Assembly: GCA_965652025.1 (NCBI GenBank) | Contig: CBFGTM010000005.1 | Span: 3,771 to 67,770 of the forward strand | DNA length: 64,000 nucleotides | Source of the DNA: an uncultured Gemmatimonadales bacterium | Lineage (GTDB): Bacteria; Gemmatimonadota; Gemmatimonadetes; Gemmatimonadales; GWC2-71-9 | Direction of reading: 5' to 3' | Part shown: positions 3,216-60,703 of the stretch, piece by piece | Layout of the letters: every line of letters starts with the position of its first letter | How positions within the stretch are numbered: the first letter of the stretch is position 1 | Made by a program: the position numbers and the translations under genes | The notes under the pieces: generated by a model | Told to the model about the DNA's origin: nothing | Database searches by the model: none | Seen by the model: only the letters and a program-made list of their open reading frames with translations

Positions 3216-4012
3216 CGGCCCGTCCGCTCACTTTCGCCGCCAACTGGAAGATGAACCACGGGCCGGGGGAGGCCCGGGCCTTCGCGCGGAAATTCCTCCC
3301 CCTGACCACTCCGGTGCAGGGCCGGCGTCTCTGGTTCTTCCCGCCCGCGGTCTCGATCGGTGCTCTGAGTGAGGCGGTGCACGAGCGTCCCGACATGACC
3401 GTCGGCGCCCAAAACGTGCACTGGGAGCCGAAGGGCGCCTTCACTGGTGGGATCTCCATCCCGATGGTCACCGAAGTAGGAGCGCGTCTCACCCTGGTCG
3501 GACACTCGGAGCGGCGGCACCTCTTCGGCGAGACCGATGAGCAGGTGGCCCGGAAGACGCGTGCGGCTCTCAAGGCCGGTATCACGCCGCTCGTGTGTGT
3601 TGGGGAGACCCTGGCCGAGCGGGATGGCGGCCGCACCGAGCAGGTCATCGTGCGGCAGCTCGGCCCGGTGATTCAGGCTCTCCAGATCGAGGACTGGGAC
3701 AACGTCACCCTGGCATACGAGCCGGTATGGGCGATCGGGACGGGGAAGAACGCAACGCCGGACGACGCGGCACAGATCCACGAGCTCATCCGAATGGAGC
3801 TGGGCCGCCATAGCGTGAAGAAGCGGGTTTCCATTCTCTACGGCGGCAGCGTCAACGCCGGGAACGTCGCTTCGCTGCTCACGCGGCCTCAACTCGACGG
3901 CGTCCTGGTAGGTGGCGCGAGTCTCGACCCCGACACCTGGGCCGAAGTCGTGCAGCAGGGATCCAGGGCTACGGTGCGACCCTCAGGAGGATATGGTGTG
4001 CTGGAAGCGTAG
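3212..4012 (+). CDS. tpiA: Triosephosphate isomerase
   Basis: [36 protein letters not shown] overlap with the pgk stop. Carries a roughly 20-aa C-terminal extension beyond the usual end. Confidence 0.95.
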
Positions 4013-4028
4013 CCGCCTGTAGCATCCC

Positions 4029-4913
4029 ATGCCCGAGCTGCCTGACATCACACTGTATATCACCCAGCTTCAACCCCGCATCACCGGCCAGCCACTCAAC
4101 CAGATCGTCGTTCGCAGCCCGTTTCTGCTCCGCTCCGTGGATCCACCGCTCTCGGCGGCGGAAGGGAAGCGAGTTACCGGACTCCGGCGCCTGGGCAAGC
4201 GGATCGTGCTCGAACTGGAGGACCAGCTCTTTCTGGTCATCCATCTGATGATTGCCGGGAGGTTCCGCTGGGTGGCGGCCGATGCCAAAGGCGGCGGCAA
4301 GCTGCTACTGGCAAGCTTCCACTTTCCCAACGGCACCCTCCAACTCACTGAAGCAGGCAGCAAGCGGCGAGCCTCTTTGCATCTGGTGGCCGGTGCGGAG
4401 CGGCTGCGTGATTTCGAGCGGGGCGGGCTAGAGGTACTGGAGGCCGATCTCGGCAGCTTTGCCGAACGCCTACGCTCGGAGAACCACACCCTCAAGCGTG
4501 CCCTCACCGATCCCCGGCTCTTCAGCGGCATCGGGAATGCCTACTCCGACGAGATCCTCCACCGCGCCCGCCTCTCGCCCTTGGCGCTTACCAGCCGGCT
4601 GTCCGAGGCAGAGGTGACAACCCTCTATCAGGCCACCCGGGCGACGCTGCAGGCCTGGATCGAGCGCCTGCAGCGGGAAACCGGGGACGCGTTTCCGGCC
4701 AAGGTCACCGCCTTCCGCGAAGGCATGGCGGTGCACGGCCGCTTCGGCAAGCCCTGTCCCGCCTGTGGTGCTCCAGTCCAGCGGATCCGGTATGCCGACA
4801 ACGAGACCAACTACTGCGCCCGGTGTCAGACCGGGGGACGGCTGCTGGCGGATCGGGCGCTGTCACGGCTGCTGAAGCAGGATTGGCCGAGGTCGATTGA
4901 TGAGGTGGAGTAG
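4029..4913 (+). CDS. Fpg/Nei-family DNA glycosylase / AP lyase
   Basis: N-terminal MPELPD (catalytic Pro2/Glu3), H2TH region, C-terminal zinc finger CPACG...CARCQ. Confidence 0.85.
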
Positions 4914-4951
4914 GTGGTAGGCAGTCACGAGTCACGAGTCGCGAGTCGCGA
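4910..4951. repeat. Tandem heptamer array GTAGGTG GTAGGCA GTCACGA GTCACGA GTCGCGA GTCGCGA (left arm of an inverted pair)
   Basis: Read directly: six consecutive 7-nt units starting with GT, beginning within the fpg stop codon (TAG 4911-4913). The last four units fit GTCRCGA. Confidence 0.9.
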
Positions 4952-4959
4952 TTGTCGTG

Positions 4960-5313
4960 CTAGACATCGAGCGAGCGAATAAGCCCACTCAGCATTTTGC
5001 TTAGCTGCTGGCACTGATCATCTAGGATCTTCCAAGCTTCAGATTCAACAAGCCTCAGGTCCCGGCACACCAAGAGCTGGCACTCGAGTTCGCAGGTCGA
5101 ACCACGTGCGATCCTGAGGTACCTGGCATGTTCCCTGTCGCTGAGTCTGCCAGACCCTTCGGCGATGTTGGAGGCAATCGAAACCGCTGATCGTCTTAGC
5201 TGAGCTGTCAAACCATAGCGCTCTTGAACTGGGAAACCATTAGTCGAGCGGTAGATCTCCAAGACCAGCCCGTGGGCTTGCTTCCAAACCGCGAGTCGGC
5301 GGTAGTTCCCCAT
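4960..5313 (-). CDS. Four-helix-bundle protein (23S rRNA intervening-sequence protein / Avd family)
   Basis: 117 aa. YRRLAVWKQAHGLVLEIY...RSAVSIASNIAEGSGR...YLRIARGSTCELECQL is the hallmark pattern of this family. No obvious Shine-Dalgarno upstream. Confidence 0.9.
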   Translation of the reverse strand: MGNYRRLAVWKQAHGLVLEIYRSTNGFPVQERYGLTAQLRRSAVSIASNIAEGSGRLSDREHARYLRIARGSTCELECQLLVCRDLRLVESEAWKILDDQCQQLSKMLSGLIRSLDV

Positions 5314-5389
5314 TGGTGCACGGTATAGTCGGGCTTTTCAGATTGAGTATCCCGCTAACGTCGCAGTAAGCTGATTCACGCGGGCGCTT

Positions 5390-5424
5390 GCGCGACTCGT
5401 GACTCGAGACCCGCGACCCGCGAC
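5390..5424. repeat. Tandem heptamer array GCGCGAC TCGTGAC TCGAGAC CCGCGAC CCGCGAC (right arm, reverse-complement orientation)
   Basis: Read directly. TCGYGAC is the reverse complement of the GTCRCGA units at 4924-4951. Confidence 0.9.
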
Positions 5425-5468
5425 CCCTTCTCGACTTCCAAGATCTTCCCAATTAAACTACCGCCACC

Positions 5469-5942
5469 ATGTTCGCATTTCTGCTCGTACTGCTCATTAT
5501 CGACGCCTTGCTGTTGTCTGTGGTCGTCCTGCTCCAGGCCGGCCAGGGCGGAGGACTTGCCTCGCTCGGCGGCGGAACCACGGACACCGTGCTCGGTGGC
5601 CGCCAGGCGGTCACAATCCTGACCAAGCTCAGCTGGTGGTGCGGCGGCATCTTTCTGCTGCTCTCGCTGATGCTGTCGCTGGTCCCCCGGGGCGGCAGTT
5701 CCAGTGCGCTGCAGGAGCGGCTCCGGGCTGCCACGCCCGCGGCGCCGTCGCAGCAGGCCCCGCTGCCCCTGGGCGAGCCCAATCAGCCACCGACCAGCAC
5801 TCCTCAGACCGGCACTCCCAAGCCGGGCACCACTACTCCGCAGGCCCCCCAGTCCCGGCAGGCACCGCTACCTCTCGGCACCCCGGCTGAGCCGAAGACC
5901 CAGGTGCCGGCGCCGAGTAAGCCTCAACAACCCAAGCAGTGA
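5469..5942 (+). CDS. secG: Preprotein translocase subunit SecG with Pro/Gln-rich C-terminal tail
   Basis: N-terminal TM helix followed by [16 protein letters not shown] (SecG signature), a second TM helix, then a low-complexity PQ-rich tail. Confidence 0.85.
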
Positions 5943-5973
5943 TCGAAGCAACCGGATTCAGCGGGGTGACCGG

Positions 5974-7071
5974 ATGACGGGTCGCCCCGCTTTTGTATTG
6001 CTGGAGGATGGCGCCTGGTTCGCCGGAACCAGCGTACGGGAAAGCCAGCCTGCATTCGGGGAGGTGGTCTTCACCACCAATCTGACCGGATATCAGGAGA
6101 CGTTTACTGATCCCAGCTACATGGGACAGATCGTCGTGATGACTGCGCCAATGATCGGCAATTACGGAGTGAACGAAGAAGACATGGAGTCGCCTCAGCC
6201 TCAGATCAGCGGGGTGGTGGTTCGCGAGTTGGCGCGGCATCCTTCCAACTGGCGCGCCACCCGGAGTTTGGACGACTGGCTCGGCTCAGCTGGAGTTCCG
6301 GTCATCGAAAGCGTCGATACCAGACGACTCACCCGCCACCTCCGGGAACGTGGAGCCATGCGGGGAGTTATCGCCCAAGGCACTAAGCCAACCGATCAGC
6401 TGCGGGCGCGGCTCCTGGCCTCACCTTCGATGGAAGGGCTCGACCTGGCGTCTCGGGCCAGTACCGGCACTGGCCGAAGCGAGGGCACTGGTCCTCACGT
6501 GGTGGCGTATGACTTCGGAATGAAGCGCAACATCGTTCGCATGCTGGTCGGAGCGGGATGCCGAGTAACCGTGGTTCCCGCGGCAATGCCCGCAGCGGAG
6601 GTGCAAGAGATGAAGCCGGACGGACTGTTCCTTTCCAATGGGCCCGGGGATCCCGCGGCGGTCGGCTATGCTCTGGCGACGATCCGCCAGCTCGCCGACG
6701 CGGGGCTGCCAACATTCGGCATCTGTCTGGGGCATCAGCTGATCGGTCTCGCCTACGGTGGCTCCACGGCCAAAATGCCCTATGGCCATCGAGGCGGAAA
6801 CCATCCGGTGCGTAATCTGCGAACCGCTCAGGTGCTGATCACGACTCAAAACCATGGCTTTGCGGTAGTTGGCGACGCTGACGGCGTTCCGGGCGCACCC
6901 GCCTTAGAGGTGACCCATCTGAACCTGAACGACGGGACGATTGAAGGAATTCGTCATCGCGAGCTGCCGCTCTTCGCGGTGCAGTATCATCCCGAGGCGG
7001 CACCCGGCCCCCACGATGCCTTGCCTCACTTCTCCGAATTCATGGCGGCCCTGGGGAAGGGTGGCCGGTAG
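5974..7071 (+). CDS. carA: Carbamoyl-phosphate synthase small (glutaminase) subunit
   Basis: [18 protein letters not shown] (catalytic Cys), [16 protein letters not shown]. The longest ORF (5704) adds an Arg/Pro-rich extension overlapping secG. ATG 5974 ([13 protein letters not shown]) matches the conserved N-terminus. Confidence 0.95.
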
Positions 7072-7083
7072 TTCGGCAACCCC

Positions 7084-7112
7084 TTGACAGACAAGGGTTA
7101 AGCCCGTAGTAT
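7084..7112 (+). promoter_or_regulatory. Candidate sigma70-type promoter for the HU/IHF gene
   Basis: TTGACA (7084-7089), a 17-nt spacer, then TAGTAT (7107-7112), 55 nt upstream of ATG 7167. This is a motif match only. Confidence 0.45.
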
Positions 7113-7166
7113 CGGCCATTGGCTGGCCCGCCTGCGCTCCGCTGACATAACCCTCCTGGGGGATGC

Positions 7167-7496
7167 ATGACCAAGGCCGATCTCGTTGAACAGGTGACCG
7201 CCTCCATTGCCCGCACGGCTGGGCCCATGATCTCCAAGAAGGACTGTGCCCGCGTGGTGGATGCATTTCTCGAGGCGGTAAAGGAAGCACTCAAGCAGCA
7301 ACACAACATTGAGGTTAGGGGCTTCGGCACCTTTAAGATTCGGCGCCGGAAGACCCGCATGGCACGCAATCCCCGCACCGGCGATCCAGTAGAGGTTGCC
7401 GCGCGGCCGGTACCGGTATTCAAGCCCAGCAAGGAGTTGCGGGCTCTGGTGGCGGACGAGACAACTTCCGAGGCCGAACCGGCTCAGGGGATGTAA
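7167..7496 (+). CDS. HU/IHF-family DNA-binding protein
   Basis: 109 aa. MTKADLVEQV..., VEVRGFGTFKIRRRKTRMARNPRTGDPVEV beta-arm motif. Confidence 0.9.
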   Translation: MTKADLVEQVTASIARTAGPMISKKDCARVVDAFLEAVKEALKQQHNIEVRGFGTFKIRRRKTRMARNPRTGDPVEVAARPVPVFKPSKELRALVADETTSEAEPAQGM

Positions 7497-7519
7497 AAAG
7501 CTCGCCACCGCTATAGCCA

Positions 7520-7550
7520 AGGTCGCCCGAGGGTGGGCGACCTTTTTTTC
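7520..7550 (+). terminator. Rho-independent terminator after the HU/IHF gene
   Basis: 9-bp perfect GC-rich stem AGGTCGCCC (7520-7528) / GGGCGACCT (7535-7543), 6-nt loop, followed by a T7 run. Confidence 0.8.
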
Positions 7551-7599
7551 GCTGCCGACGCTGTTTCCGCCTGGGCCCTAGTGGCGGTAACTTTCTGCT

Positions 7600-7866
7600 A
7601 TGCCTGTCAGTAACGCCCCCACGCTTCGCCTCCGGGTTCGGTTGTTCGCCAGCTACGCCGAGGCCCTGGGCTACGACCAAGTCGACCTATGCCTCGACCA
7701 TCCCTGTACCGTAGCCGATGCGGTGAAGCTTCTAAGGGCCCTTCCCGGTGGCGAGAGGCTCCCCAACCGGCCACTCTGCGCCATTAACCTATCCCAGGCT
7801 ACTCCCGAGGATCCGCTGTCGCCGGGAGACGAGCTGGCGCTCCTGCCTCCGCTGTCGGGTGGATGA
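7600..7866 (+). CDS. moaD: Molybdopterin synthase sulfur-carrier subunit (MoaD/ThiS family)
   Basis: 88 aa ending in the obligatory C-terminal Gly-Gly (LPPLSGG). Sits immediately upstream of moaE. Confidence 0.8.
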   Translation: MPVSNAPTLRLRVRLFASYAEALGYDQVDLCLDHPCTVADAVKLLRALPGGERLPNRPLCAINLSQATPEDPLSPGDELALLPPLSGG

Positions 7867-8362
7867 CCTCGTGTATCTGACCACTGAGCCAATTGATCTG
7901 ACGGCACTGCTGGTGCAGGTCCAGTCGCCTTCGCGGGGTGGCGTCGCCTGTTTCATCGGGGCAGTGCGGGATCACGCCGGCGGCCGAGCAGTCACACGGC
8001 TGGACTATTCGGCATACGGGCCCATGGCCGAGACCGAGTGCGCCCGCATTGTCGCCGAAGCCGAAGCGCGCTGGTCCTGTGGCGTGGCACTCCAGCACCG
8101 AGTCGGCACCCTGGCCGTCGGCGACACTGCGGTAGCCATAACGGCGGCCGCCGCGCACCGGGACGAGGCCTTCGCCGCCTGCCGATACGCGATCGAGGAA
8201 GTGAAGCGCCGCGTGCCAATCTGGAAGCGCGAGGTGTTCGCGGATGGATCGGTGGAGTGGGTAAGCGGGTATGCGGGTAAGGGGGTAAGCGGGGACGTCA
8301 ATGAAACGACACAAGACCTGGCGGGTGGGCTGGTGAGGCAACCCGGGGAAGTCGATTCATGA
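7859..8362 (+). CDS. moaE: Molybdopterin synthase catalytic subunit
   Basis: GAVACFIGAVRDH-like motif (GGVACFIGAVRDHAGG), AAAHRDEAFAACRYAIEEVKRRVPIWKRE. The likely start, GTG 7859, overlaps the moaD stop. The last ~34 aa are encoded by the octamer repeat element. Confidence 0.85.
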   Translation: MDDLVYLTTEPIDLTALLVQVQSPSRGGVACFIGAVRDHAGGRAVTRLDYSAYGPMAETECARIVAEAEARWSCGVALQHRVGTLAVGDTAVAITAAAAHRDEAFAACRYAIEEVKRRVPIWKREVFADGSVEWVSGYAGKGVSGDVNETTQDLAGGLVRQPGEVDS

Positions 8363-8396
8363 ACCGACTTACCCGCCTACCCGCCTACCCGCTTAC
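8261..8396. repeat. Inverted tandem octamer arrays (GTAAGCGG-type x4 / CCGCTTAC-type x4) spanning the moaE-moaA junction
   Basis: Left arm: GTAAGCGG GTATGCGG GTAAGGGG GTAAGCGG (8261-8292). Right arm: CGACTTAC CCGCCTAC CCGCCTAC CCGCTTAC (8365-8396). The arms are mutually reverse-complementary and separated by a 72-nt spacer that contains the ATGA stop/start at 8359-8362. Confidence 0.9.
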
Positions 8397-9405
8397 TGAC
8401 CTCCTGGACCGTCCGCTCCGGAGCCTGCGGATCAGCGTCACCGATCGCTGCAACATGCGTTGCCGGTACTGTATGCCGGAGCAGGACTATGTCTGGCTGC
8501 CACGACAGTCGATCCTATCATTCGAAGAAATCGATCGATTGGCCGGAATCTTCAGCCGCCTTGGCGTTGACAAGCTTCGCATCACCGGCGGGGAGCCGCT
8601 GCTGCGACATGACCTCCCTGAATTGATCAGGCTGCTCCGGCGGCAGCCAGGCATTCACGATCTGGCAATGACCACCAACGGAATCCTGCTGGGTCGGCAT
8701 GCCGCTGACTTGCGAGCTGCTGGCCTCGACCGGGTGACCGTAAGCCTGGATACGCTCCGGGCCGACCGGATGGAGGAGTTTGCCCGGACTGCTCGACACG
8801 CCGAGGTGGTCGAGGGGATTGCCACTGCCAAGCGAGTGGGACTCGGCCTCAAGCTCAATGCGGTGGTGATCCGGGGTTACAATGAGGATGAGCTGGTTGA
8901 TCTGCTGGAGTTTGCCCGCGTGTGGCGTGCGGAGATGCGGTTCATCGAATACATGGATGTCGGTGGCGCTACTGACTGGGCCATGGAACAGGTAGTGACC
9001 CGGACCGAAATACTCCAGATGCTGAGGCGTCGCTACGGTGGGATCGAACCACTCGAGACCGCGGATTGGGCACCGGCCGATCGCTACTCGCTGCCTGACG
9101 GGACGGTATTCGGGATAATTGCTTCGACCACTGCACCGTTTTGCCGCACCTGTGACCGCAGCCGTCTGACCGCGGACGGCAGTTGGCTGCTCTGTCTCTA
9201 TGGCGAATCCGGGATCGATCTTCGGGAGCACCTGAGGACGGGCCGCTCCGATGCGGAGATCACCGCCATCGTCGAGGAAGCCTGGAGGGCTCGCCGGGAT
9301 CGTGGCGCCGAGCTGCGGGCCGAGTCGTTGCATCGAGGGGCCCTGTACCAGCTGGAGACGCTCCGCGCCGATCCCCACCGGGAAATGCATACTCGGGGCG
9401 GCTGA
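8359..9405 (+). CDS. moaA: GTP 3',8-cyclase (radical SAM)
   Basis: LRISVTDRCNMRCRYCMP (CxxxCxxC radical-SAM cluster), ITGGEPLL, C-terminal cluster CRTCDRSRLTADG. The first ~11 codons lie in the octamer repeat. Confidence 0.93.
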   Translation: MNRLTRLPAYPLTDLLDRPLRSLRISVTDRCNMRCRYCMPEQDYVWLPRQSILSFEEIDRLAGIFSRLGVDKLRITGGEPLLRHDLPELIRLLRRQPGIHDLAMTTNGILLGRHAADLRAAGLDRVTVSLDTLRADRMEEFARTARHAEVVEGIATAKRVGLGLKLNAVVIRGYNEDELVDLLEFARVWRAEMRFIEYMDVGGATDWAMEQVVTRTEILQMLRRRYGGIEPLETADWAPADRYSLPDGTVFGIIASTTAPFCRTCDRSRLTADGSWLLCLYGESGIDLREHLRTGRSDAEITAIVEEAWRARRDRGAELRAESLHRGALYQLETLRADPHREMHTRGG

Positions 9406-9911
9406 TGCCGCTCCATATTGCGCTGATCGAGCCTCAAATCCCTCCCAATACCGGAAACATCGCGCGACTGTGCGCGGCGACCGACACCTCCCTGCATTTG
9501 ATCGAGCCAATGGGTTTCAGTATCAGCGACAGGGACCTCCGCCGCGCCGGCCTCGACTATTGGGACGCTGTGGACCTCTGGGTTCACCCGAACTGGTTCG
9601 CCTTCCGCGATGCGATGGACCGCTCCCGCTGCCTCTACTTTTCGGCCAAGGCACAGCAGAGTTACTGGCAAGCGCCCTATCGGCCCAACAGCTGCCTGGT
9701 CTTCGGCAGCGAGACCGCGGGCATGCCGCAGCGGATTCTGGAAAAGCATCCGGACCGGTGTTTCACCATTCCGATGAGCGGGCCGGTGCGGAGCCTGAAC
9801 CTCTCGACCGCGGTCGGGATCGTGCTGTATGAGGCGATGAGGCAGGTCGGAATGGGTCGCGAGCTGCGGGTCGCGAGTCGGGCAGCACCAATCGAGACTT
9901 CTGACTCGTGA
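9405..9911 (+). CDS. trmL: tRNA (cytidine/uridine-2'-O)-methyltransferase, SpoU/TrmL family
   Basis: MPLHIALIEPQIPPNTGNIARLCAAT..., VFGSETAGMP, SLNLSTAVGIVLYEA. ATG 9405 overlaps the moaA TGA. The longest ORF (9183) is an out-of-context extension. Confidence 0.88.
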   Translation: MPLHIALIEPQIPPNTGNIARLCAATDTSLHLIEPMGFSISDRDLRRAGLDYWDAVDLWVHPNWFAFRDAMDRSRCLYFSAKAQQSYWQAPYRPNSCLVFGSETAGMPQRILEKHPDRCFTIPMSGPVRSLNLSTAVGIVLYEAMRQVGMGRELRVASRAAPIETSDS

Positions 9912-9919
9912 CTCGCGAC
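9856..9919. repeat. Inverted heptamer arrays with only an 8-nt spacer (cargo-less copy of the 4910-5424 element)
   Basis: Left arm: GTCGCGA GCTGCGG GTCGCGA GTCGGGC (9856-9883). Right arm: TCGAGAC TTCTGAC TCGTGAC TCGCGAC (9892-9919). The outermost units are perfectly complementary. It encodes the last ~18 codons and the stop of trmL. Confidence 0.85.
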
Positions 9920-9984
9920 CTGAAGTCAGTATATTGCGGCGGTTTGACCCCAAATGACTTCTCAACCCGCATGCGAGAGCCGAA

Positions 9985-10914
9985 ATGCTGAATAAGGTCG
10001 CGGTTGTTGGGGCGGGAAACGTTGGTGCGACGGCGGCCCAACGGCTGGCTGAAAAGAACCTGGCACGCACTGTGGTCATGGTCGACGTGGTGGACGGTGT
10101 CCCCCAGGGAAAGGGACTCGACCAATGGCAGTCAGGCCCGATCGAGGGATTCGACACCCGGGTCGTTGGCAGCGGCAATTACGACGAGGCCGCCGGAGCG
10201 GAAGTCTTTGTGGTCACCGCAGGCATCGCTCGAAAGCCAGGGATGAGCCGGGACGACCTGGTGAAGACCAACGCCGGGATCGTCCGATCGGTCGCCGAGC
10301 AGATCGGCCGGGTGGCGCCGAAGTCGATCATCGTGGTGGTCTCCAATCCACTCGACGTGATGTGCTACGTAGCGATGAAGGCGAGTCGCTTTCCCCGCGA
10401 GCGCATCCTCGGCATGGCCGGCGTGTTGGACACCGCCCGCTACCGAACCTTCCTGGCAGAGGCCCTCGACGTGTCGGTCGAGGACATTCAGGCGATGGTG
10501 CTCGGCGGACACGGCGACACCATGGTGCCGCTGGTCTCTTATACCACGGTCTCCGGGATTCCGGTGACCCAGCTGATCGACCGGGCCAAGCTGGATGCGA
10601 TTGTCACCCGGACCCGGAATGGGGGCGCTGAGATCGTCAGCTTCCTCAAGACCGGGTCGGCCTATTATGCGCCGAGCGCCGCCGCCGTGCAGATGGTGGA
10701 AGCCATCGCGCTGGACAAGAAACGGATCTTGCCGTGCTCGACCTGGCTTCAGGGGGAGTTTGGATTACGGGATGTCTTCTGTGGCGTCCCCTGCAAGGTG
10801 GGGCGCTCGGGGCTGCAGGGCATTATCGAGGTTACGCTCACCCAGGCGGAGCAAGAGGAACTCCAGAAGTCAGCGGAAGCGGTTCGCTCGACCCAGGCGC
10901 TGGTGGACATCTGA
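9985..10914 (+). CDS. mdh: Malate dehydrogenase (LDH-like MDH)
   Basis: [34 protein letters not shown]. Confidence 0.95.
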
Positions 10915-10928
10915 GCCGGGCCGGTCAG

Positions 10929-11588
10929 ATGAACCGTCTCCGCTTGCTGTGGGATTCTTCGGTGGGCAAGAAGGTGATCATGGCGGTCACCGGGGTGATT
11001 ATGGTGGCTTATCTGATCACCCACGTACTCGCCAATCTGCTGGTGTTCCAGGGCCCCTCCAAAATCAACGCGTACAGCGCATTTCTGCATGGGACCGGGG
11101 CTGCCCTCTGGGCGGTGCGGCTGGTGCTGCTCGGCGCATTGGTCCTTCACGTGGTTGCCGCGGTCCAGCTGGCCCGTCGCCGCTTCGATGCCCGGCCCGT
11201 CGGCTATGCAGGGGGGCGGGAACCGCAGGTCTCAACCTGGGCCTCTCGGACCATTCGGTGGGGCGGGGGACTCATTCTGGTCTTCCTGGTCTATCACATT
11301 CTGCATTTTACGGTGGGAACCGCCCACCCCGATTTCGTCGAGGGTGACCCCTACCATAACGTGTCGACCGGGTTTCGTAATCTGGGCGTCGTCATTGTTT
11401 ATCTCGTAGCCATGGCCGCCGTGGGCCTGCACCTCTATCACGGGATCTGGAGCAGTGGCCGCAGCCTGGGGATGAGCCCGCCTTCGCCCAATCCGTTCCG
11501 GCGCACGGCGGCACTGATGCTGGCACTGGTCATCTGGCTCGGGTTCACGGTCATCCCGCTCGCCGTTTACGCTGGAGTGGTGCGGTGA
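10929..11588 (+). CDS. sdhC: Succinate dehydrogenase / fumarate reductase cytochrome b subunit (b558 type)
   Basis: Multi-TM protein ([28 protein letters not shown]...) with conserved His residues, directly upstream of and overlapping sdhA. ATG 10929 chosen over the longest ORF at 10734, which overlaps mdh. Confidence 0.8.
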
Positions 11589-14273: not shown

Positions 14274-15500
14274 GTGAACGGCCCCCGCCTGGCCGCGGTA
14301 CTGCTCCTCCTGCTCTCCCGACCGGCATGGCCTCAGGCGGCACCCTGGATCCGCCTCGGCGCCAACGCCATCCCACTCTATACCTACGCCAATCCGGTGC
14401 CGGGAGGCGACGGGCTGGGGGAGGTTCGGGTGGTGCAGCCTACCCTCATGACCCATGGAGGCGCCTTCGGCGACCGACTGCGGCTGCTCACCACGGTCAA
14501 CCTCGAGGGAGTCACCATTCGTAATGGTGAGCTGTCCATGGGAGCCTGGGGCGAGGGCTTCATGGACCGGCGGCACCCTCATACCTATGTGCACGAGGTG
14601 ATGTTGGGGTGGGTGCAGCGGCTCAGCCGCGGCGCGGTTTCCCTTGCTGCGGGAAAGGGATTCGCGCCCTTCGGAACCGATGACCCAATGTCCCGCCCCA
14701 TCGTCCGATACCCCGTAAACCATCACTTTGCCCAGATCCTGGAACGGGCCGTGGCCATACTGGGCGCTCGGGTCGGGCCAATCTTGCTGGAGGCCGGGCT
14801 GTTCAACGGGGATGAGCCGGAGCACCCCGACCAGTGGCCCAACATCTCCCGTTTCGGCGATTCGTGGTCCGGGCGCCTGTCAGTGTTCCCGCTTGCCAAT
14901 CTGGAGCTCCAAGGCTCGTATGCGGACGTCCACTCCCCCGAGCACCGCCCTGGCTTCGGCACGGACCAGACCAAATGGAGCCTGTCCGGCCGCTGGTCGG
15001 GGCCAGTGGAGGGGTTTCCGGTGTACGGCCTCCTCGAGTGGGCCCAGACCTCAGAGGCAGACGGCTTTTTCGTATTCCACAGCCTCTTGGGGGAAGGTGC
15101 ATGGACCTGGGGGCGCGGGCGTCTCCTTTATCGCTTCGAGCGGACCGAGCGGCCGGAGGAAGAGCGAACCCAGGATCCGTTCCGTTCTGTCCGGCCCCAC
15201 TTGGAAAACTCTATTCTGGGCGTTACCCGGTGGACGATTCATACGCTGGGCTCCGACTATGAGCTTCCCGGGCTGGATCCGGTGCGTGCGCGTCCGTTTG
15301 TCGAGGTATCCTATGGCCGGATCAGCGTCGTCGAAGGCCTGTTGGATCCGGTGTCATTCTACGGAAAGTCGTCGTTCTGGTCCGTCAGCATGGGGCTCAG
15401 GCTGGGAATAGGCCTGCCCCTCCATCGTATGGGACGCTACGGTGTGGCCCAGGACACCGCGCAAGGAGATGGGACCCACCACCATGGGCATGATGAATAG
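14274..15500 (+). CDS. Hypothetical secreted / outer-membrane protein, His-rich
   Basis: GTG 14274 lies 5 nt after the sdhB stop. Signal-peptide-like LAAVLLLLLSRPAWPQA, alternating beta-strand-like sequence, several His motifs (RRHPHTYVHE, VNHHF, HHHGHDE). No family recognised. Confidence 0.55.
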   Translation: MNGPRLAAVLLLLLSRPAWPQAAPWIRLGANAIPLYTYANPVPGGDGLGEVRVVQPTLMTHGGAFGDRLRLLTTVNLEGVTIRNGELSMGAWGEGFMDRRHPHTYVHEVMLGWVQRLSRGAVSLAAGKGFAPFGTDDPMSRPIVRYPVNHHFAQILERAVAILGARVGPILLEAGLFNGDEPEHPDQWPNISRFGDSWSGRLSVFPLANLELQGSYADVHSPEHRPGFGTDQTKWSLSGRWSGPVEGFPVYGLLEWAQTSEADGFFVFHSLLGEGAWTWGRGRLLYRFERTERPEEERTQDPFRSVRPHLENSILGVTRWTIHTLGSDYELPGLDPVRARPFVEVSYGRISVVEGLLDPVSFYGKSSFWSVSMGLRLGIGLPLHRMGRYGVAQDTAQGDGTHHHGHDE

Positions 15501-15648: not shown

Positions 15649-16686
15649 GTGCATGGGAACTACGCCTACACGGGCACCTGGGGTTTTCGAGACCAGCGCG
15701 GCAACGTTGTGAAGGTGTGGGCCCTTGACGCCAGTGGGGCTCCCTCACTGGCTGGATCGGTGACGATTGATGACCTCGGAACCGTGAGTGATGTCCAGGT
15801 CAGCGAGGACGGCCAGCTTCTGGTGGTGAGCGGCGAGAGGGGCGGAGATCTGGGGGAGAATGGCGGCATCTATACCTATAGCCTGAGTAACCCAGCCAAT
15901 CCCGCTCCCCTGGGCATCGGGCCGGTTCCGATCGGCGGCGTTCACACCGTCACCGTCGCCTCGGTAAATGGGCAGCTCTACGCCTTCGCCGCCAAGAACC
16001 CCGGATTCAGCGGAAACGAAGCTCAGAACCAGCCCGCCCTTCTGATCTTCAGCCTGGCCAACCCCGCGTCGCCCACCCTGGTACATAGTGAACCGATCGA
16101 GCCGCACTATGGCATTCACGACACCTTCGTCCGGGATGGCCTGGCTTTCGTTTTCGCCTGGGATGAGGGGGTGATCATCTACGATGTCGGCAACGGTATT
16201 CTCGGCGGATCGCCGGCTTCACCAGTCGAGGTGAGCCGCATTATCACGGGCAGCAGTGGGATGACCCCGTCGGCCCATAATGGCTGGTGGTTCCACAACC
16301 CAGTCAGCGGGGAACGGCGCTACTTGTTCGTGGGCCAGGAGGGGCCGGGCGTCGTTGGTAGCCGGTCCAGCGGGGATATCCACGTGGTCGATGTCTCCAA
16401 TCTGACCGAGCCACGTGAGGTGGCGCTGTTCCACCTGGACGGAGCGGGGACCCACAATTTCTGGGTCGATGAATCGCGGCAGGTTCTCTATGCGGCCTAC
16501 TACAACGGTGGCGTTGTTGCCATCGATATCTCGGGTACGCTCTCGGGAGACCTGTCCAGCCGGCTCTTGAGCCAGGTGCGGCCAGGTGGGGCGGGGAGCA
16601 CCTATACCTGGGGCGTGCAGCTCGCTAACGGGTCTCTGTACGCCATTGACATGGTGAGTGGCCTCTGGCAGTTGAAGACCGAATAA
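15649..16686 (+). CDS. LVIVD-repeat beta-propeller protein, lacking its own signal peptide
   Basis: Repeated strand motifs of LVIVD type: VKVWALDASG, GIYTYSLSNPANP, LLIFSLANPASP, GVIIYDVGNG, DIHVVDVSNLTEP, GGVVAIDISG. First ATG after the in-frame TAA. Confidence 0.75.
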   Translation: MHGNYAYTGTWGFRDQRGNVVKVWALDASGAPSLAGSVTIDDLGTVSDVQVSEDGQLLVVSGERGGDLGENGGIYTYSLSNPANPAPLGIGPVPIGGVHTVTVASVNGQLYAFAAKNPGFSGNEAQNQPALLIFSLANPASPTLVHSEPIEPHYGIHDTFVRDGLAFVFAWDEGVIIYDVGNGILGGSPASPVEVSRIITGSSGMTPSAHNGWWFHNPVSGERRYLFVGQEGPGVVGSRSSGDIHVVDVSNLTEPREVALFHLDGAGTHNFWVDESRQVLYAAYYNGGVVAIDISGTLSGDLSSRLLSQVRPGGAGSTYTWGVQLANGSLYAIDMVSGLWQLKTE

Positions 16687-53366: not shown

Positions 53367-54053
53367 ATGTCTTTGCACCACATAGTTTTTGCAGCCGGGC
53401 TGATAGCTTCGACCAGCTTGATTTTCCCGCCTGCTGCTTCCGGGCAGACCCCCAGTGCCGACAGTGCCGCCCCACCAGTCGACACGTCTGTGACCGACAG
53501 CGTCTCACAAGGCAACAGCACTCGCCTGACCGTGGACAGCCTCGGCGCCCGGACTGGTGGAGCAGGCCAGCCGGAGCAAGGGTCCGACAGTGTTCGTCCG
53601 CCGGTACCGGTTGACAGTATCCTCAGGAAGGCCTGCCGAGGTTCTGGAGGTTCAGCAACCTTAGCTCGGGACCTGCTGGTAGTTGTCTTCGCGCCCGAAG
53701 CAGCGAGGGCCGACCGTGCTGCGCTTGCCAGGGAGGTTGGGGGCAAACTGCTCGGTCCGGTAAGCTCAGAACCGGGGGCCTACTACTTGAAGGTACCGAC
53801 CCGAGGGCAGGAGCACCGCCTGAGAGCGGCGGCCGATGAGCTCGTCCGCTCTGGCCTGGTTCGGCGGGTAGGCACTCGGGCCTGCCCATCGCCGGCACCA
53901 GCCGACACCAGCCGCAAGGCACCAGCCGACACCAGCCGCAAGGCACCAGCGGACACTGGCTCTAGGACACCTGCCGATACCAGCCGTCCGACCTCTGCCG
54001 ATACCGGTAGTGCAGGGCCTGCCGACACTAGCCGCGCAGGGGTGATTGATTAA
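53367..54053 (+). CDS. Secreted hypothetical protein with C-terminal PADTSRKA-type octapeptide repeats
   Basis: Signal peptide MSLHHIVFAAGLIASTSLIFPPAASG. The central segment LLVVVFAPEAARADRAALAREVGGKLLGPV...YYLKVP resembles protease pro-domain-like alpha/beta modules. Six 8-aa repeats at the C-terminus. Confidence 0.6.
   Translation: MSLHHIVFAAGLIASTSLIFPPAASGQTPSADSAAPPVDTSVTDSVSQGNSTRLTVDSLGARTGGAGQPEQGSDSVRPPVPVDSILRKACRGSGGSATLARDLLVVVFAPEAARADRAALAREVGGKLLGPVSSEPGAYYLKVPTRGQEHRLRAAADELVRSGLVRRVGTRACPSPAPADTSRKAPADTSRKAPADTGSRTPADTSRPTSADTGSAGPADTSRAGVID
53898..54041 (+). repeat. Six tandem 24-nt repeats (coding, PADTSRKA-like)
   Basis: Units 1 and 2 (53898-53921, 53922-53945) are identical: ccagccgacaccagccgcaaggca. 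Units 3-6 are progressively diverged (PADTGSRT, PADTSRPT, SADTGSAG, PADTSRAG). Confidence 0.9.
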
Positions 54054-60104: not shown

Positions 60105-60703
60105 CGGCCAGGAAGCGAGGAAGCGGGGAAGGGGGGATGGTAGGCTCGCCGGTGCAAATCAGCGGCGCTCATCGGGCGCCGGGTGAGCACGGCGTCACCG
60201 GAGGCCACGGCACCGAGACCGAGCCCTATGAGAGGGTCTTCCGCGGGGACCGGTTGGTCGGGCTGGAGCGCCTGTTCACTCTCTATCCGACCAAACAGGC
60301 CTGCCTGCTGCCGGCCCTCTGGATGGTCCAGGAGGCCCGTGGCTGGATTTCCGAGCCGGCTATTGGAGAGGTGGCCGAGGTGTTGGGGCTTACCCCGGCG
60401 TACGTGAAGGGCGTGGTGACGTTCTACACCATGTACCATACCCACCCCGTGGGCCGCCACTTCATCCAGGTCTGCACTACCACGCCCTGCAATATCTGCG
60501 GCGCGGAAGAGGTGATGAAGGCACTTCTGGAGCAGACCGGGTGTGGAGAACTCGGCGCTACCAGTCCCGATGGACGGTTCACCGTAATCGAGGTCGAGTG
60601 CCTCGGCGCCTGCGGCTTTGCCACCCCGATTCTCATCGATGACGACTTCATCGAGAGCGTCACCCCCGAAAAGGTCCCCGGGATCCTGCAGAGGTACGAG
60701 TAA
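60101..60703 (+). CDS. nuoE: NADH-quinone oxidoreductase subunit E
   Basis: 2Fe-2S ligands in VCTTTPCNICG and ECLGACG. Roughly 45-aa N-terminal extension. Confidence 0.92.
   Translation: MTARKRGSGEGGMVGSPVQISGAHRAPGEHGVTGGHGTETEPYERVFRGDRLVGLERLFTLYPTKQACLLPALWMVQEARGWISEPAIGEVAEVLGLTPAYVKGVVTFYTMYHTHPVGRHFIQVCTTTPCNICGAEEVMKALLEQTGCGELGATSPDGRFTVIEVECLGACGFATPILIDDDFIESVTPEKVPGILQRYE

Follow-up and report, generated by a model that had tools for sequence, protein, structure and literature searches.

An antisense four-helix-bundle gene bracketed by inverted tandem heptamer arrays in a Gemmatimonadales fpg-secG spacer: a possible non-ribosomal counterpart of the 23S rRNA intervening sequence

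A small PF05635-family gene, coding for a four-helix-bundle (4HB) protein, lies between fpg and secG in a 64-kb stretch of an uncultured Gemmatimonadales genome (contig CBFGTM010000005.1; hereafter the window), enclosed by two inverted arrays of tandem heptamers that can pair into a long stem. An earlier reading of the sequence alone had taken it for a self-contained cassette, mobile or RNA-processed and akin to the intervening sequences (IVSs) of 23S rRNA. We find that bracketing by inverted arrays is a near-universal, gene-specific property of the PF05635 family across phyla, seen at 67 of the 86 genes sampled, and that the bracketing arrays consist of 4-5 heptamers, sometimes octamers. At the Gemmatimonadales fpg-secG spacer, gene and arms are present or absent as a block. 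The interpretation that we favour, with a probability of roughly 0.45, is that the locus is a non-ribosomal counterpart of the 23S rRNA IVS that bears an open reading frame (ORF). The cassette and its immediate flanks are laid out as follows.

4029-4913, + strand: Fpg/Nei-family DNA glycosylase gene (flanking host gene); the insertion begins directly past its stop codon
4902-4951: left arm (3' arm in the orientation of the 4HB gene), with tandem heptamers at 4910-4951
4952-4959, - strand: 8-nt spacer from the 4HB stop codon to the 3' arm
4960-5313, - strand: 4HB protein gene, 117 aa, PF05635/TIGR02436, with an Xcc0516- and Avd-like fold
5314-5389, - strand: 76-nt spacer from the 5' arm to the ATG
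5390-5432: right arm (5' arm in the orientation of the 4HB gene), with heptamers at 5390-5424
5469-5942, + strand: secG (flanking host gene), ahead of which about 45 nt of native spacer (5425-5468) are kept

The left arm reads GTAGGTG, GTAGGCA, two copies of GTCACGA and two of GTCGCGA, its outer part overlapping the last codons and the TAG stop of fpg; the outermost two units, GTAGGTG and GTAGGCA, are degenerate as well as overlapping this stop codon. The right arm, which is imperfect, reads GCGCGAC, TCGTGAC, TCGAGAC and two copies of CCGCGAC, and its complementarity with the left arm runs on to 5432. Tandem Repeats Finder (TRF) reports period-7 arrays at 4923-4951 (4.1 copies, 95% matches) and 5391-5426 (5.1 copies, 86% matches), and a two-unit GTCRCGA pattern with up to 2 mismatches is matched 16 times in the window against 2.8 +/- 2.0 times in shuffles, none of 100 shuffled windows containing 16 matches. 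The arms are mutually inverted over 27 nt at 85% complementarity, or over 42 nt at 74% when the longer pairing of 4902-4943 with 5391-5432 is taken. Joined by a short loop they fold on either strand into a stem of about 40 bp, at -56.0 kcal/mol (z -5.9) on the + strand and at -59.3 kcal/mol (z -6.5) on the - strand. In the fold of the whole 536-nt segment the ends are closed by the array stem, with z of -2.7 on the sense strand of the gene and -1.5 on the + strand. Together with two gene-less hairpins (8256-8396 and 9855-9920), the cassette accounts for the strongest three close inverted repeats of the window. The arrays, their coordinates and their inversion, as described in the sequence-only reading, are thus confirmed by sequence, TRF, shuffles and complementarity; the RNA folding that it had proposed as a check also bears it out, the array stem closing the segment and the joined arms reaching z of about -6.

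It had further described the 4HB gene as the only one between the arms, with spacers of 8 and 76 nt, no Shine-Dalgarno sequence and an antisense orientation to both neighbours, fpg (+) and secG (+), and all of this holds. No GGAGG precedes the ATG, and the upstream spacer (5314-5389) is weakly conserved among orthologues. A scan of 4700-5700 returned no sigma-70-like promoter match, no intrinsic terminator and no terminator-like site at either arm, and an Rfam search of 3500-11000 returned no rRNA and no other known RNA family.

The generality of the bracket was examined in a family sample of 80 loci with 86 4HB genes, whose products are 39-51% identical to the window protein and come from Acidobacteriota, Planctomycetota, Bacteroidota, Gemmatimonadota, Chloroflexota, the candidate phyla radiation (CPR), Proteobacteria and others. 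Within 150 bp of the 4HB genes the density of period-7 arrays is 3.04/kb, as against 0.108/kb more than 500 bp away, a 28-fold enrichment; the corresponding densities for period-8 arrays are 0.43/kb and 0.032/kb. With mismatched flanks as control, the inverted repeat between the two flanks exceeds the 95th percentile of the control at 67 of the 86 genes and the control maximum at 47. A score of at least 14 is reached by 47/86 4HB genes and by 1/86 other genes in the same loci (Fisher p 7e-17), so that the odds ratio of the bracket is near 100. Arms have a period of 7 in 49 cases and of 8 in 6, with a median of 4.3 units per array; the 3' arm begins a median of 7 nt past the 4HB stop codon and the 5' arm ends a median of 38 nt ahead of the start. 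Within a locus the arms are 91% Watson-Crick complementary, while unit sequences are unrelated between loci, which amounts to large-scale covariation. A sequence preference is seen in the 5'-arm heptamers, 41 of 49 containing AG (22 expected) and 24 of 49 AGT (8.3 expected). Independent datasets show the same: plasmid copies of the gene in Calothrix, Azospirillum and Nostoc punctiforme are bracketed by inverted heptamers, and GGGAATC repeat #15 of a published Xanthomonas table overlaps the start of XCC0516, the crystallised family member (2GSC). The proposal that the array stem is the defining structure, made originally for a single locus, is therefore supported for the family as a whole, as its defining cis structure, by its presence at 67 of 86 homologues, whereas a single one of the 86 control genes reaches the stringent score. 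The idea that a 7-nt period serves to place stop codons in every reading frame was rejected as a general explanation, because many units (e.g. AGTTGCC, TCGCGAC) have no stop on either strand.

Gemmatimonadales relatives whose Fpg and CarA are 76-86% identical to those of the window allow the history of the fpg-secG site to be followed. Two relatives, L087 and L088, have empty sites with neither gene nor arrays, their spacers measuring 51 and 20 bp; the native spacer 5425-5468 can be aligned with them, and the extra DNA of the window is almost exactly 4914-5424. An intact antisense 4HB gene is found at this site in the window, in L216 and in contig P0189. In L215 (1982-2410) an intact gene lies in sense orientation between arms of AGTCAGG x4 and CCCGACT x5, suggesting inversion by arm recombination or independent insertion. 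The gene is frameshifted in L089 and N-terminally truncated in L091, and L213 and L214 have a gene-less mini-hairpin with right-flank sequence in common with the window; the cassette thus decays in some lineages, by frameshift, truncation or reduction to a hairpin. On the host tree, lineages with different states are interspersed. From one orthologue to the next the unit changes together in the two arms (AGTCRCG in the window; AGTCGCC in L216, L089 and L091; AGTCAGG/AGTCGGG in L215), and the metagenome variant L082, one of six contigs with the identical protein, has one TCGTGAC unit fewer in the left arm, a slippage polymorphism; this variant and the Coxiella strains discussed below show that the arrays change by whole-unit slippage. 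The comparison of this spacer among relatives, which had been suggested as a check, accordingly reveals presence/absence of a block of about 4914-5424, and the idea of a discrete inserted cassette is upheld by the two spacers without gene or arrays.

The suggestion that the cassette is mobile was not borne out. Wherever a close protein homologue has usable context, it is at the fpg-secG site, and blastn of the 80 loci, all against all, found no near-identical cassette elsewhere and hence no recent transposition; matches were orthologous loci over kilobases, or coding sequence only without arrays. There being no recently moved cassette among these loci, cassette ends cannot be defined in that way. 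The same site in close homologues and the missing near-identical copy elsewhere mark the cassette as an old resident, repeatedly lost, degraded or flipped, and not demonstrably mobile at present; the purifying selection on its protein likewise speaks against mobility. A transposon with terminal inverted repeats or a miniature inverted-repeat transposable element was also considered and rejected, as there is no direct repeat at the junctions relative to the empty sites, no transposase domain and, among the 80 loci, no near-identical copy at another site.

The 117-aa protein, product of the single 4HB ORF of the window, matches PF05635 at E 6e-36 (123.3 bits, cutoff 33.8) and TIGR02436 at E 2e-35 (121.4 bits, cutoff 24). 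Its AlphaFold (AF2) model, built as a monomer, is a four-helix bundle with pLDDT 95.6, closest to Xcc0516 (2GSC; TM 0.94, 45% identity), followed by BT_0352 (2RLD; TM 0.82) and Avd, the accessory protein of diversity-generating retroelements (DGRs; 4DWL and 8UB7; TM ~0.8, ~8% sequence identity). In a Pfam search to E <= 10, PF05635 was the sole family detected, with no transposase and no recognised catalytic domain. A defence system or HEPN-like nuclease was rejected, since there was no PADLOC match and no second Pfam family even at that threshold. The identical protein is present on 6 metagenome contigs, always at the fpg-secG site. Orthologous proteins are 54-68% identical, with pN of 0.22 against a saturated pS of 0.73-0.75, and the protein is therefore under purifying selection. 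Xcc0516 (2GSC) is reportedly a homopentameric toroid (Lin et al. 2006); by analogy, the window protein probably forms a pentamer as well and, being basic (pI 9.1), probably binds nucleic acid as Avd does.

The closest known parallel is the 23S rRNA IVS of Coxiella burnetii and Leptospira with its 'S23p' ORF. In Coxiella a PF05635 ORF lies within a 28-bp terminal stem, the 5' region of which holds 3-4 tandem GACAGAT heptamers, their number varying between strains; RNase III cuts this stem in vitro, and the ends were mapped to mid-stem, with the 5' cut at the first heptamer (PMC4990558). The window cassette resembles these elements in the protein family, in the position of the gene within terminal inverted repeats that form a long enclosing stem, in the lack of an evident Shine-Dalgarno sequence and in a sporadic distribution with subsequent vertical maintenance; the tandem heptamers in the stem are shared with Coxiella in particular. 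The kinship with IVSs proposed in the earlier reading thus gains a concrete basis in the GACAGAT heptamers at the RNase III-cut stem (PMC4990558). The differences are that the cassette lies between the protein-coding genes fpg and secG and not in an rRNA helix (23S helix 9, 25 or 45), that its gene is antisense to the host transcript, that purifying selection clearly acts on its protein while the Coxiella ORF is believed to be in decay, and that RNase III cutting is demonstrated for Coxiella and inferred here. An rRNA context was found for none of 20 homologous loci tested.

Under the favoured reading, the PF05635 gene occupies the loop of a stem of about 40 bp with inverted tandem heptamer arrays as its arms. 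In read-through transcripts the arms would pair and the stem would be cut by RNase III, which would release the cassette RNA, separate the flanking messages and let the element be tolerated inside operons and rRNA. Such processing, proposed here because it has been demonstrated for the heptamer-containing Coxiella IVS, would be the most likely function of the arms. The most plausible target of the 4HB protein may be its own array stem. The tandem-repeat stem would arise by slippage duplication, and its two arms would be kept complementary by selection or template switching. In orientation counts that rest on crude gene calls from GC content at third codon positions (GC3), 31 of 42 4HB genes lie between co-oriented genes, 11 between convergent and none between divergent ones, and the upstream neighbour is co-oriented at 38 of 50 callable loci; these positions fit a dependence on read-through transcription. 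The antisense configuration of the window is a minority type (6/42).

Several observations weigh against this reading. Arrays are about 50-100 times commoner without a 4HB gene than with one, and therefore cannot be merely the ends of 4HB cassettes. Because the gene runs against the operon, what excision frees from the host transcript would be antisense RNA, and a promoter of its own was not found within 4700-5700. Selection of the stem on the sense transcript would predict more G-U than A-C mismatches and stabler sense duplexes; this version of the idea was rejected, since stem mismatches are 34 G-U against 35 A-C, with no RNA-strand signal, and the energies of flank duplexes favour neither the sense nor the antisense strand (48 vs 36 loci, p 0.87), although long-flank duplexfold energies discriminate poorly in GC-rich DNA. 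The period of 7 and the recurrent AG(T) are left without explanation, recent transposition is missing as noted above, and we purely infer that the 4HB protein binds the arrays.

The excess of gene-less arrays was established on metagenome contigs, which were scanned for three exact GTCRCGA units; at least 120 such stretches were found and 80 were examined. A 4HB ORF adjoins 1 of the 80 (L132, ~1%) and none of the 44 arrays that have 600 nt or more of sequence on each side. An inverted partner lies within 700 bp for 26 of the 80, most gene-less arrays being solo or in short hairpins. The loops of these 26 measure 10-100 nt in 24 cases, 303 nt in one and 500 nt, with the 4HB gene, in one. In L167 (429-773) the 303-nt loop has, in place of a 4HB gene, a different ORF together with a GC-rich hairpin; loops of this kind may therefore hold other cargo. 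On inspection, no obvious mutual similarity was seen among the gene-less hairpin loops. In a 20-kb syntenic segment of L216, inverted tandem-array hairpins occupy 6 of about 12 spacers and only one of the six holds the 4HB gene; the units differ, and those of hairpins within one genome include AGTCGCG, AGTCGGG, ATAGCCC, AACAGTA and octamers. In view of this excess and of the L216 spacers, the word 'self-contained' is too strong for the cassette. The co-occurrence of arrays and 4HB genes, also proposed as a check, holds in one direction, as arrays bracket 67/86 4HB genes, and fails in the other, as only ~1% of GTCRCGA arrays come with one. The two related gene-less arrays noticed in the window from the start are genuine hairpins, one of octamers and one of heptamers.

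8256-8396: gene-less octamer hairpin, GGGTAAGC x4 / TACCCGCC x3, at the moaE/moaA junction
9855-9920: gene-less hairpin with a 16-nt loop, built of GTCRCGA/TCGYGAC units, at the junction of the trmL-like gene and mdh

The first extends into the sequences coding for the MoaE C-terminal tail and the MoaA N-terminus, and at the same junction L088 has GGAAGCGN and L216 has GGCGGGAC / CTGCCCCG x8; because the hairpin overlaps coding ends and its units differ in relatives, the repeats are translated into variable protein tails. At the trmL-mdh junction L216 has AGTCGGG x4 / CTCCTGA x4. For both hairpins the position is conserved between the window and its relatives while the unit sequences have turned over. 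Gene-less hairpins may at least in part be deletion derivatives of 4HB cassettes.

Further repeats of these kinds were seen. L216 has heptamer hairpins of GGCTATT / CCCATAG at 14344-14479, in which the AG/CT polarity is reversed relative to most hairpins, and of AACAGTA / ACTGTTC at 16460-16558. In L132 (220-350) the stretch from the 5' arm to the ATG forms an additional hairpin, in which a GGAGG Shine-Dalgarno sequence pairs with an upstream CCTCC, and past the 4HB stop codon there is a GC-rich terminator-like hairpin. At 60111-60137 of the window a tandem octamer, GGAAGCGG x3.4, separates two ORFs and has no visible inverted partner; the moaE-moaA hairpin of L088 is built of this unit too.

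The main rival, which we hold to be unlikely but ahead of the remaining alternatives, is a partnership of protein and repeat at the DNA level, similar to REPIN-RAYT systems. The 4HB protein would recognise tandem-heptamer DNA hairpins by structure or by their AG(T) periodicity and would drive their formation, expansion or spread, its own flanks being cognate sites and the gene-less arrays dependants. As in REPIN-RAYT systems, a single vertically inherited gene is flanked by hairpin-forming repeats, gene-less repeat copies populate intergenic regions, and the association persists long in a lineage; like RAYTs, the 4HB gene passes vertically at a single site and is subject to purifying selection. 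Gene-less arrays and hairpins vastly outnumber the gene-bearing ones. The absent G-U bias is consistent with maintenance at the DNA level, the orientation flip at one site suggests recombination between arms, and heptamer-rich lineages also carry 4HB genes: in Xanthomonas there is XCC0516, and among 72,556 plasmids the 25 with the family include 21 that are cyanobacterial. The difficulty is that, unlike REPINs, the repeats of the window and L216 are locus-specific tandem heptamers and not one conserved dispersed family; units differ even between hairpins of one genome, which excludes sequence-specific copy-and-paste, and hairpin positions are conserved between relatives and not newly dispersed. 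There is no Y1/HUH transposase, the protein being a four-helix bundle without known catalytic motif or recognised catalytic domain, and L088, which lacks the gene at fpg-secG, still has hairpins, other gene copies elsewhere in that genome being possible. The lack of wobble or strand bias, the antisense gene without a promoter, the gene-less excess and the RAYT-like inheritance nevertheless keep this partnership the main rival. Somewhat less probable again is the view that the hairpins are intercistronic elements of the host, built by slippage and serving as stabilisers, processing sites or translational couplers, and that the 4HB gene inserts into their loops or is only tolerated there, with no functional link between protein and repeat. 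That ~1% of arrays have a 4HB gene, that hairpins occur at conserved operon junctions with some overlapping coding ends, and that 23S IVSs cap rRNA helices and so occupy hairpin loops, would all suit it, as would the cyanobacterial short tandemly repeated repetitive (STRR) hairpins (hupS-hupL), proposed to stabilise transcripts or couple translation (PMC2670836). It is disfavoured because the bracket is gene-specific, even in phyla where arrays are sparse (~0.1/kb), and because empty fpg-secG sites lack any hairpin; in addition, the intermediates L091 and L089 point to hairpins arising from cassette decay and not the reverse, and insertion targeted to loops needs a recombinase, none of which was identified.

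Two further explanations have little left to support them. A remnant or orphan Avd gene of a DGR is highly improbable. The likeness to Avd (bAvd 4DWL; DGR ribonucleoprotein 8UB7) lies in the small basic four-helix bundle of a family whose members form pentamers, and apart from the fold there are a weak match to NF033474, the Avd equivalog, and faint bAvd Pfam matches on orthologues. The NF033474 match reaches 17.1 bits against a cutoff of 80, and Avd, with a reverse transcriptase as partner, binds nucleic acid as well as structured DGR RNA, whereas the window gene has housekeeping neighbours (pgk, tpiA, fpg, secG, carA, HU, moaD/E/A, trmL, mdh and sdh) with neither a reverse transcriptase nor a template/variable repeat pair nearby. 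The 4HB loci that lack arrays likewise have housekeeping neighbours and no reverse transcriptase, and 50,697 phage records gave no match to the family. A chance juxtaposition of slippage-prone simple repeats with a small gene might be entertained in that heptanucleotide repeats are described as the commonest class of long simple sequence repeats in many prokaryotes (cited in PMC4679880 and PMC4692102); it is already refuted by the enrichment beside 4HB genes and the contrast with control genes, and replicated association in plasmid records and the published Xanthomonas table leaves it the least credible of all.

The arrays themselves have relatives in the literature. Inverted GGGAATC pairs of X. 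campestris, about 70 of them convergent and able to form stem-loops (PMC4692102), belong here, as do the STRR hairpins between cyanobacterial genes such as hupS and hupL (PMC2670836), the STRRs reported inside cyanobacterial RNase P RNA genes (Vioque 1997), and TAACTGA repeats, which occur in Beggiatoaceae, cyanobacteria and Bacteroidetes; GGGAATC (Xanthomonas) and GGGGAYT (Nostoc) repeats have been interpreted as G-quadruplexes. The STRR hairpins and the GGGAATC, GGGGAYT and TAACTGA repeats share with the arrays described here tandem 7-nt units, typically in about 4 copies, a copy number that differs between relatives, and an intergenic position, mostly between co-oriented genes and often as convergent inverted pairs. 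The fpg-secG cassette likewise has convergent inverted 7-nt tandem arrays between co-oriented genes, and Beggiatoa TAACTGA is the reverse complement of AGTTATC-type units found in this analysis. In RNase P RNA the STRRs reportedly extend a helix. Unlike here, the studies of STRR, GGGAATC and TAACTGA repeats treated the repeats alone, as G-quadruplex, translational or stability elements, with no link to PF05635, and the window repeats enclose a gene, in the genome of a member of the Gemmatimonadales. The occurrence of PF05635 genes within cas operons and in rRNA insertions has been published before, and our literature search, outside of which most subscription journals lay, found no paper linking the family with heptamer repeats generally. 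What appears new, a prior description being possible, is an element of the IVS type that lies outside rRNA and is marked by a stem of tandem heptamers.

Members of PF05635/TIGR02436, a very large family without assigned function, are present in multiple copies in many genomes, turn up inside cas operons and rRNA genes and are related in sequence to Avd, the DGR cofactor. Tandem heptanucleotide repeats are likewise without an accepted explanation, and in many prokaryotes they are the most frequent class of long simple repeat. The tight and specific coupling of the two places both orphans in a context that is concrete and can be tested, makes the 23S IVS one case of a general element where it had been a curiosity of rRNA, and opens both to experiment in tractable organisms (Xanthomonas XCC0516, Nostoc). 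For annotation, the cis-signature of arrays separates this 4HB class from the Avd genes of DGRs. A bolder idea, to which we attach a low probability, is that PF05635 proteins and tandem-heptamer hairpins form a widespread two-component system, in which the pentamer would recognise, generate or maintain 7-nt-periodic hairpins; with similarly little assurance, such a system may be RAYT-REPIN-like in logic and mechanistically unrelated. If true, it would account for the excess of heptanucleotide repeats in prokaryotes (STRR, GGGAATC, TAACTGA), for the origin of 23S rRNA IVSs and for the ancestry of Avd.

Some minor observations concern other family sites and the window at large. In three related Acidobacteria genomes (L033, L048 and L072) 4HB genes with only short arrays lie between sucC and sucD, which is thus another conserved operon-internal site. 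On Nostoc PCC 7120 plasmid alpha (L217, 3776-4126) the 4HB gene has a CTTCTGC/CCTCTGC heptamer array downstream only; the upstream arm may be disrupted, because a transposase and IS200/IS605 tnpA flank the region. The window SecG (5469-5942) has 157 aa and a long proline/glutamine-rich C-terminal tail, the length of which varies among relatives (SecG 129-187 aa). A possibly coding period-24 tandem repeat, GGCACCAGCCGACACCAGCCGCAA, is present at 53891-53986 in 3.9 copies, with nested periods of 10 and 14 nt.

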